A program made the translations under genes and the position numbers. A DNA stretch of 64,000 bases from a virus (lineage: Duplodnaviria > Caudoviricetes), in the IMG/VR virus record IMGVR_UViG_2896201746_000001, positions 1 through 64,000 of that record; one strand, written 5' to 3'. This document shows positions 28,287 to 29,030 of the stretch, one piece after another; position 1 is the stretch's first letter; the number at the start of each line of letters is the position of its first letter. The notes beneath the pieces are model-generated. The model worked only from the letters and a program-made list of their open reading frames with translations, ran no database searches and was not told where the DNA came from.

Positions 28287-29030
28287 TTAAAGCGCCCGCT
28301 TCACGAGCGCCAGGCCATAAAACTCACCGAACTGGAAAATCCGCTCGCCGTCGAAGTCGTGCAGGCGCGCCAGTTCCAGCACCGCACCCTGATCCGTCGG
28401 CCGCTGCTCGCCGCGCAGCGACAGCTCCTTCGACACGTAGGCGTCGGCCGGCGAGCCGGAGCGCAGCTTGGACGCCAGCAGGGCGGTCTTGGCCGCGGTG
28501 GCGACGGCCGGCACGCCGAGATAGCCCTTGTCGACCAGGATCACCGCGCCGCCCGGCACGACCGCCTCGAACAGCTTGGCGAGGAACTGCTCGCGCTCGC
28601 CCGGCCGCATGAACATCAGCGTCAGGAACAGCACGGCGACGTCAGGGCGCTTGCGGGAATAGTCGACCGTCTCCGCGTCGATCGTCCACAGCTCGCCGGT
28701 GCCGGCCCAGTTCTTCGTCATCTGGTGCGATGGTTCGATCGACACGAACGTCGCGCCCTTGGCCTCGCGGGTGTCGCACAGCAGTTTGGTGATGTTGCCG
28801 GTCGACGCGCCGATGTCGTAGACCACGCCGCGCTGTGGCAGGAAGCTCACGACGAGGTCGCAGACGTAGCGCGACAGGGCGTCGTACCAGGGGAGCTGCT
28901 CGCGCACATGCTGCTCGAACTTGTCGGCGACGGCGTCGGACTTGAAGGACCAGGCCGCCGGCGTCTCGTCGGCCTGGAGCCGGGTGGCGTTCTCGATGAA
29001 CACGTCGTTGGTCAGGTCATGCTCGGGCAT
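28287..29030 (-). CDS. cmoA: CmoA-like (carboxy-SAM synthase family) SAM-dependent enzyme
   Basis: Colinear with E. coli CmoA as recalled: WSF..VADKF..LPWY, VYDIGASTG, VLFLTLMF..ER..L..L...PGGAVILVDK, FQFGEF; R199-equivalent appears to be Glu. Confidence 0.8.
   Translation of the reverse strand: MPEHDLTNDVFIENATRLQADETPAAWSFKSDAVADKFEQHVREQLPWYDALSRYVCDLVVSFLPQRGVVYDIGASTGNITKLLCDTREAKGATFVSIEPSHQMTKNWAGTGELWTIDAETVDYSRKRPDVAVLFLTLMFMRPGEREQFLAKLFEAVVPGGAVILVDKGYLGVPAVATAAKTALLASKLRSGSPADAYVSKELSLRGEQRPTDQGAVLELARLHDFDGERIFQFGEFYGLALVKRAL

Follow-up and report, generated by a model that had tools for sequence, protein, structure and literature searches.

A divergent phage CmoA homologue with glutamate in place of the carboxylate-binding arginine, and its predicted role in DNA carboxymethylation

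The DNA analysed here (the window) comprises positions 1 to 64,000 of the IMG/VR virus record IMGVR_UViG_2896201746_000001, a metagenomic record that is complete at 112,120 bp and has direct terminal repeats. A gene on its minus strand, at 28287-29030, encodes a homologue of CmoA, the enzyme that makes carboxy-S-adenosylmethionine (Cx-SAM) from S-adenosylmethionine (SAM) and prephenate. In the Escherichia coli enzyme, Arg199 forms a 2.7-Å salt bridge to the carboxymethyl carboxylate of Cx-SAM and Asn132 contacts the methionine moiety (PMC3663124). The window protein has a glutamate, Glu202, in place of Arg199. We conclude that it is most probably (with a probability of roughly 0.78) a phage-type CmoA that feeds Cx-SAM to a neighbouring CmoX enzyme for carboxymethylation of the phage DNA, and that the positive charge has probably been relocated from the Arg199 position.

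The pathway that we propose is as follows. The CmoA homologue would convert SAM and prephenate to Cx-SAM, and a translationally coupled CmoX would transfer the carboxymethyl group of Cx-SAM to C5 of cytosines in the phage DNA, giving 5-carboxymethylcytosine (5cxmC). A CmoY-like ligase would then amidate the carboxylate of 5cxmC. Two further enzymes, one an ATP-grasp protein resembling D-Ala-D-Ala ligase (Ddl) and the other belonging to the ornithine cyclodeaminase (OCD) family, probably elaborate the modification further or supply the amine. Within the CmoA homologue, Arg206 stands at the position of E. coli Glu203, one helical turn on from Glu202, which would amount to a reciprocal arginine/glutamate swap. 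Arg210 lies in a conserved [R/K]-Pro motif (E. coli positions 207-208), and Lys201 (E. coli Lys198) is retained.

There is a precedent for such a pathway. Yang et al. (2025, December; PMC12783734) described a CmoA-CmoX-CmoY locus for 5cxmC/5gcxmC hypermodification in Synechococcus phage S-B43, and in the literature searched this is the only description of natural 5cxmC. The phage enzyme, SpCmoA, makes Cx-SAM from SAM and prephenate with a kcat of 2.33 s-1, against 0.23 s-1 for E. coli CmoA, and these are the only two CmoAs for which PMC12783734 gives this synthesis as shown. SpCmoX moves the carboxymethyl group onto cytosine C5, after which SpCmoY ligates glycine. In the SpCmoX crystal structure (8YF3) the carboxylate is bound by R350; replacement of this residue by Asn (R350N) abolishes activity, and wild-type SpCmoX uses Cx-SAM only. 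The same paper notes that ParBc proteins often occur beside CmoX, and leaves the range of amides on 5cxmC open (all PMC12783734; the mechanism of CmoA itself is reviewed in PMC10491745, from 2023). Judged by its sequence and its gene neighbourhood, the window CmoA is a new, divergent member of this system. The gene and the parts of it that matter here are:

28287..29030, minus strand: CmoA homologue (predicted carboxy-SAM synthase), 247 amino acids; PHROG 4752, E 4.8e-37, full length
28398..28433, minus strand: S200-K201-E202-L-S-L-R206-G-E-Q-R210-P211, the end of lid helix α7 and the next loop
28626..28628, minus strand: Phe135, at the position of E. coli Asn132, which binds the methionine moiety of the cofactor
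28797..28817, minus strand: SAM-binding motif I, D72-I-G74-A-S76-T-G78, equivalent to E. coli D62, G64 and S66

Sequence family and predicted fold

The relationship to CmoA is clearest when whole families are compared. The profile of the window family aligns by hhalign with that of E. coli-type CmoA at Prob 99.6 and E 1.9e-24 over 220 columns, and with that of the SpCmoA family at Prob 99.5. The single sequence finds E. coli CmoA (4GEK) by phmmer against the PDB at E 1.2e-8, in an alignment confined to residues 26-170. It scores 43.6 bits against TIGR00740 (cut-off 193.3) and 35.1 against NF011995 (cut-off 285), and is thus a CmoA homologue that falls under both equivalog cut-offs.

An AlphaFold2 model made with the family alignment has a predicted local distance difference test score (pLDDT) of 91.4 and a predicted template modelling score (pTM) of 0.87, and its best Foldseek matches are 4GEK, 4IWN and 1IM8, that is, E. 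coli CmoA and Haemophilus influenzae YecO. Helices 49-63, 174-190 and 195-204 of the model are the counterparts of the α2/α6/α7 lid, which in E. coli CmoA encloses the cofactor (PMC3663124). The residues in contact with SAM are also kept: Y49, D72, G74, S76 and F140 correspond to Y39, D62, G64, S66 and F137, whose roles in the E. coli enzyme are described in the same paper.

The family is a large one. It holds 2485 proteins at E<=0.001 among 4039 candidates, and relatives are encoded in at least 570 loci of the viral collection (600 pattern matches among the matches listed) and at least 545 loci of the metagenome collection (593 pattern matches among the matches listed).

These data also bear on whether the protein merely resembles CmoA and, like ordinary methyltransferases, uses SAM to methylate a small molecule, a protein or a nucleic acid. 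Pfam identifies nothing more specific than generic Methyltransf_11/25/12 domains, the PHROG and JGI label for the relatives is 'tRNA methyltransferase', and the C-methyltransferases CysG and BelI are near in fold. We nevertheless regard this as very improbable. The top matches by sequence, by profile and by fold are all CmoA; conservation extends along the whole protein and takes in both the W-x-F...P-x-Y segment at the N-terminus and the helices of the lid over the cavity; and the gene is tightly, often translationally, coupled to a CmoX of the arginine type described below.

Glutamate at the position of Arg199

A first-pass annotation of the window, made from the letters alone, had aligned the end of the lid by eye and without gaps to a peptide of E. 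coli CmoA, and had thereby placed Glu202 at R199 and a phenylalanine at N132. The phmmer and NCBIfam alignments cover only residues 26-170, the matches to Pfam models likewise end near residue 170, and so all are silent on R199. The question was therefore addressed with a MAFFT L-INS-i alignment of 197 sequences and with hhalign. The alignment contains 122 window-type sequences (the window protein, 120 relatives among the matches listed, and Moraxella phage Mcat8), 13 E. coli-type sequences (E. coli CmoA and 12 of 120 relatives among the matches listed), 61 SpCmoA-type sequences (SpCmoA and 60 of 120 relatives among the matches listed) and one CmoA from a Staphylococcus SPbeta-like phage.

Both methods give a single ungapped register, in which K201 aligns with K198, E202 with R199, R206 with E203, R210 with L207 and P211 with T208; F135 aligns with N132 by phmmer and by MAFFT. 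The window segment concerned is SKELSLRGEQRP (residues 200-211, at 28398-28433 on the minus strand), and the E. coli peptide used for comparison, QKRSMLENVMLT, is indeed present in E. coli K-12 CmoA as taken from the genome record, with R199 and N132 as numbered. The first-pass annotation had foreseen that a proper alignment might put an arginine at R199. Neither MAFFT nor any of three hhalign runs produced a gapped alignment that does so, and Glu202 stays there throughout. Its reading of the alignment, of both substitutions and of the homology to CmoA thus stands.

These substitutions are highly uniform. Using E. coli numbering, position 199 is Glu in all 122 window-type sequences, and position 132 is Phe in 120 of them, which makes chance or sequencing error untenable as an explanation for either. 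Glu202 is a trait of the clade and not a peculiarity of the window gene. Position 132 is I, L or V in the SpCmoA family, and hydrophobic residues occur there also in phage CmoAs that retain R199. SpCmoA itself (MN018232, 147082-147777) has Glu at 199, Leu at 132, Arg at 203 and Lys-Pro at 207-208. The window protein therefore carries neither the Arg199 nor the Asn132 of the E. coli enzyme, but since the biochemically active SpCmoA is also without Arg199, this residue does not define CmoA activity. For the same reason the suggestion that Glu202 could be the most novel part of the locus has to be given up: a proven Cx-SAM synthase has the same glutamate.

Proposed relocation of the positive charge

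If Arg199 is lost, another basic residue might take over its role, and the first-pass annotation had pointed to the nearby arginines in SLRG and QRP. The family comparison agrees with this. All 13 E. coli-type sequences have R199 and E203, with no basic residue at 203 or 207. A basic residue is present at 203 and/or 207 in 120 of the 122 window-type sequences and in all 61 of the SpCmoA type. In the SpCmoA family, position 199 is E in 60 of 61 sequences (D in the remaining one), and R203 and K207 are found in every member. R210 is present in 118/122 window-type sequences, and in the subclade to which the window protein belongs R206 is found in 25/26 and R210 in 24/26. K198 (K201 in the window) is kept throughout the CmoAs compared.

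Smaller groups vary at the same positions. The CmoAs of an Erwinia phage, an Alcaligenes phage and the related locus L172 (the related loci are numbered with the prefix L) are R199/E203/V207; Staphylococcus phage CmoAs have S or Q at 199 together with R203 and K207; and the CmoA of MT835562 has A199 and R203. Taken together, R199/E203 in one group and E199/R203 in the other suggest that the two members of an i/i+4 pair have changed places, with one of the two positions always acidic. The AlphaFold2 model places Glu202 in the C-terminal turn of helix 195-204 and both R206 and R210 in the loop beyond it. These comparisons support R206 and/or R210 as candidate substitutes for Arg199 in binding the carboxylate of Cx-SAM.

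CmoX and the probable product

The gene immediately upstream of CmoA provides a clue to its product:

29030..30184, minus strand: CmoX homologue, predicted DNA cytosine C5-carboxymethyltransferase, 384 amino acids; PF00145, E 3.8e-50

The protein matches SpCmoX (8YF3) with E 5e-64 over residues 16-365. It has the C5-methyltransferase fold and the SPPC motif (as GSPPC), and its GRSVPP aligns with the GRMVPP of SpCmoX that contains R350, so that an arginine occupies the position of HhaI N304 and SpCmoX R350. The two genes overlap: the CmoA ATG (29030-29028) shares one base with the CmoX stop codon TGA (29032-29030).

Linkage was assessed in 80 viral and 80 metagenome loci with a window-type CmoA, two sets that overlap and were not deduplicated. 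A CmoX homologue accompanies CmoA in 57 of the viral and 53 of the metagenome loci. A strict pattern of GSPPC followed by G-R-x-V-P-P is found in 36 of the 80 viral loci, where the residue is always Arg; the other 21 CmoX-positive viral loci did not fit this pattern.

The second possibility raised in the first-pass annotation was that, with the contacts of both R199 and N132 lost, the product is another SAM analogue or the carboxyl (or other) group comes from a donor other than prephenate. The invariance of E202 (122/122), the near invariance of F135 and the distinctness of a family that lies under the CmoA equivalog cut-offs could all be read in this way. Three observations speak against it. 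SpCmoA, with E199 and a hydrophobic residue at 132, makes Cx-SAM from prephenate (PMC12783734). The window CmoX has the arginine that binds the Cx-SAM carboxylate, the same residue whose replacement inactivates SpCmoX, an enzyme that as wild type uses only Cx-SAM. Finally, in locus L172 a CmoA of the R199/E203 type stands with CmoX, an OCD-like protein (37% identity to that of the window) and a CmoY-like protein (42%), so that the two flavours of CmoA serve one pathway and are interchangeable in it. Together, these make Cx-SAM the expected product and a different analogue improbable. Of the two possibilities, it is thus the takeover by a nearby arginine that has support.

Several further observations weigh against the proposal that the window protein is a Cx-SAM synthase with a relocated charge. 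Its TIGR00740 score is far under the cut-off (43.6 vs 193.3 bits), and its family is only about 19-22% identical to the SpCmoA and E. coli CmoA profiles. CysG and BelI are almost as near in fold as the CmoA structures (TMq 0.67-0.72 vs 0.75-0.77). R206 is present in only 27/122 window-type sequences, and there are two window-type exceptions to the charge pattern, P0025 (a fragment) and P0096 (no basic residue at 203 or 207). The homologue in Aeromonas phage HJ05 (L088, 2645-3382) has N/A/W at 199/203/207, and having no basic residue at any of these positions it counts against a strict rule of relocation. The pattern as a whole rests on few independent lineages and is therefore confounded by relatedness, which makes it suggestive and not statistical. 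Lastly, no CmoX-like gene was found within the fetched flank in 23/80 viral loci. As a separate observation, the genes that neighbour the HJ05 homologue are unannotated.

Loci without CmoX

The 23 viral loci without a CmoX-like gene nearby raise the question of whether the main role of the phage CmoA is something other than DNA modification, namely draining the SAM of the host, or disturbing uridine 5-oxyacetic acid (cmo5U) in host tRNA, as a form of counter-defence or takeover. The Discussion of PMC12783734 likewise raises SAM depletion as a question. We give this only slight credence as the main role. The window CmoA is in one operon with CmoX and the CmoY-like gene, and most of the loci without CmoX have another candidate transferase, either a methyltransferase-like protein fused to ParB or, in L062, a C5 methylase of the arginine type. 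A drain on SAM would in any case be compatible with DNA carboxymethylation.

In 14 of the 23 loci there is a protein of about 500 residues with a fused ParB_N domain (PHROG 5475), followed by an open reading frame (ORF) of about 140 codons and then by CmoA. Examples are L055:1986-3497 and its 13 homologues, which include L063:2708-4297 and L065:6047-7546. The C-terminal part has a VLDFGAG motif and a weak likeness to class I SAM methyltransferases; the AlphaFold2 model has a pLDDT of 72.7, and Foldseek gives E values of about 1e-3 to 2e-2. The protein may represent a second type of transferase that depends on Cx-SAM, of which the text of PMC12783734 states that none was found. In L062 the gene directly downstream of a window-type CmoA (8660-9865) encodes a divergent C5 DNA methylase (PF00145, E 1.4e-45) with an arginine at the motif-X position (LGRSMAVP). 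It was missed by tblastn with either the window CmoX or SpCmoX.

Operon and genome context

The phage is of the lambda-like-tailed type, with a G+C content of about 65% and a replication module of its own. The CmoA gene is the last in a tightly packed minus-strand operon with the order ParB, OCD-family, CmoY-like, Ddl-like, a 92-residue ORF, CmoX and CmoA. At the junctions CmoY-like/Ddl-like, 92-residue ORF/CmoX and CmoX/CmoA, three in all, the stop codon of one gene overlaps the start codon of the next. The genes upstream of CmoX are:

30181..30459, minus strand: ORF of 92 amino acids (from translation) with a hydrophobic N-terminus, between the Ddl-like gene and CmoX
30459..31385, minus strand: D-Ala-D-Ala-ligase-like ATP-grasp enzyme, 308 amino acids; PF07478, E 7.2e-29
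31385..32290, minus strand: CmoY-like PP-loop AMP-forming amide ligase, 301 amino acids, SGGIDS motif; PF00733, E 3.4e-8
32290..33192, minus strand: ornithine cyclodeaminase/mu-crystallin-family NAD(P) enzyme, 300 amino acids; translation truly begins at M43 of the ORF as listed
33323..33991, minus strand: first gene of the operon, encoding a protein with a ParB N-terminal domain; PF02195, E 8.1e-8; PHROG 723, E 3e-24

These boundaries differ from the mechanical ORF calls, which in this high-G+C phage run too far upstream to GTG codons. CmoX was called as 494 amino acids (29030-30514, minus strand), against a true length of 384, and the Ddl-like protein as 431 (30459-31754, minus strand), against 308. 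The over-extended calls mask the 92-residue ORF at 30181-30459, and the true starts overlap the preceding stops: the CmoX start is a GTG sharing bases with the stop codon of the 92-residue ORF (GTGA), with AAGGAG upstream, and the ATG of the Ddl-like gene overlaps the CmoY-like stop (TGATG). No match to the 92-residue ORF was obtained by tblastn in the 80 viral and 80 metagenome related loci.

Over 281 residues the CmoY-like protein shares 26% identity with SpCmoY (E 3e-27; tblastn to S-B43, E 2e-19). With its PF00733 match this places an AMP-forming ligase of the asparagine-synthetase-like kind in the cluster. As it is only 26% identical to a glycine ligase, the amine that it uses may differ. 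Fig. S8 of PMC12783734, on active-site classes of CmoY, may already classify the type found here.

The Ddl-like protein matches the Ddl structure 8EVX with E 9e-32, and scores 185.5 bits against PRK01372 (cut-off 243) and 162.7 against TIGR01205 (cut-off 245.65). As these scores are under the Ddl subfamily cut-offs, an assignment as D-alanine--D-alanine ligase was rejected. No counterpart of the gene is present in the 80 viral or the 80 metagenome loci with a window-type CmoA. A tblastn search of GenBank phages finds 19 records at about 23-31% identity, which where annotated are ordinary ddl genes. The enzyme might form the second of two amide bonds on the modified base.

The OCD-like family is small, with 111 representatives at E<=1e-3 among 1.84 billion. 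Its profile matches 8J1C at 7e-10, followed by mu-crystallin and the alanine dehydrogenase (AlaDH) 1OMO; PDB matches to an uncharacterised member of the OCD family, mu-crystallin, AlaDH and ketimine reductase all fall between 7e-10 and 3e-6. A specific enzyme name was therefore rejected, as the matches single out no activity. No relatives of the OCD-like or the Ddl-like protein were found in single-protein scans of viral contigs, and tblastn of the OCD-like protein against GenBank phages found nothing. Among the related loci, the gene recurs directly upstream of the CmoY-like gene in L092 (4878-5798) and in L171/L172 (L172:7956-8870), as it does in the window. L091, whose CmoA is the closest (59% identity), has in this slot (858-1958) an alanine dehydrogenase that belongs to AlaDH_PNT, an unrelated family (PF05222, 7.7e-35; PF01262, 3.8e-27).

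One of the profile matches, 1OMO, is an archaeal AlaDH that belongs to the OCD superfamily. Given this, and that an AlaDH fills the slot in L091, it is a reasonable inference from these sequences that the slot supplies the amino acid that is ligated, possibly alanine. What is new in this operon is the presence of the Ddl-like ligase and the OCD-family gene, which suggest an undescribed elaboration of 5cxmC. In L092, a 105-kb contig, the place taken in the window by the Ddl-like gene, between CmoY-like and CmoX, is occupied by an ORF of 176 codons (7433-7963) with a weak match to Ntn-hydrolases and the proteasome (E 0.003); it might be a glutamine-amidotransferase-like partner.

Some genes elsewhere in the window are worth recording. 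On the plus strand, 47571-50156 and 50492-52696 are large genes with CobT-like and 'porphyrin biosynthesis' (CobS/MoxR-type) PHROG matches, and the N-terminal half of the second also matches terminase large-subunit families. The third-position G+C is 0.49-0.65 in 24706-25488 (minus strand), 38640-40193 (minus strand) and 44256-44702 (plus strand), against about 0.85-0.93 in the rest of the phage. These three ORFs could have been acquired recently, or could be no genes at all; the first has no Pfam match and no PHROG match.

Implications

Arg199 was proposed as the signature residue by which Cx-SAM enzymes can be told apart from ordinary methyltransferases (PMC3663124). This does not hold across the family, as there are phage CmoAs without Arg199, one of them biochemically proven. 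Annotation by Arg199, or by the TIGR00740 cut-off, will therefore miss thousands of phage Cx-SAM synthases. R199 does not occur in the main text of PMC12783734, although Table S1 of that paper, which compares the phage and E. coli enzymes, may note the difference; nor does the main text mention ATP-grasp, cyclodeaminase or D-alanine. The novelty that remains is thus the rewired carboxylate pocket, unremarked in that main text, together with the extra ligase and dehydrogenase genes. The reciprocal R/E swap gives a simple way to probe product binding and turnover by mutagenesis, and the ATP-grasp and OCD-family genes make the phage a candidate source of new amide chemistry on 5cxmC.

A more ambitious proposal combines these two points. 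The replacement of R199 by Glu would be adaptive: the lid would be rewired, its guanidinium shifting to 203 or 207, and the product Cx-SAM would be held less tightly. The E. coli enzyme co-crystallised with its cofactor bound. A looser grip would explain the approximately ten-fold higher turnover of phage CmoAs, which would be needed for genome-wide modification. In addition, the operon would make a larger, undescribed hypermodification of cytosine: the CmoY-like ligase would amidate 5cxmC with an amino acid, maybe alanine or another product of the OCD-family enzyme, and the Ddl-like enzyme would then add a second residue on the free carboxylate, to give a dipeptidyl-carboxymethylcytosine. That both parts are true is a tentative suggestion, and on balance we doubt it.

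Comparison with known systems

The fold of the window CmoA is that of E. coli CmoA (P76290; 4GEK, 4IWN) and H. influenzae YecO (1IM8), with TMq 0.75-0.77. It shares with the E. coli enzyme motif I, the equivalents of Y39, D62, S66, F137, K165 and K198, and the lid helices; it differs in having E202, R206, R210-P211 and F135 where E. coli CmoA has R199, E203, L207-T208 and N132. Also unlike the E. coli gene, it has no CmoB partner (no CmoB is present in the complete 112,120-bp genome) and no link to tRNA, and it is under the NCBIfam equivalog cut-offs.

The R199-type CmoAs of Erwinia phage pEa_SNUABM_22, Alcaligenes phage Afa-NA1 and L172 are phage-borne, as is the window CmoA, but they differ from it in keeping the canonical K-R...E at 198/199/203, with Val at 207.

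Among the closest known parallels is SpCmoA. Both proteins are phage-encoded, stand beside CmoX and CmoY, and are predicted suppliers of Cx-SAM for 5cxmC. Both have Glu at the position of R199, a hydrophobic residue at that of N132, Arg at 203, and a basic residue followed by Pro at 207-208. The identity at the profile level is only about 19%, and S-B43 was not reached at E<=1e-3 by tblastn of the window CmoA against GenBank phages. The characteristic motif is K-E-L-S-L-x-G-x-Q-R-P in the window family and K-E-x-x-L-R-x-M-[L/M]-K-P in the SpCmoA family, and position 132 is Phe in the window protein, in contrast to Leu or Ile in SpCmoA. At the level of the operon, the published CmoA-CmoX-CmoY system and the window have in common CmoA, a CmoX with SPPC and an R350-type arginine, a CmoY-like AMP-forming ligase and ParBc. 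Beyond the published system, the window operon has the Ddl-like ATP-grasp ligase, the OCD-family enzyme and the 92-residue ORF.

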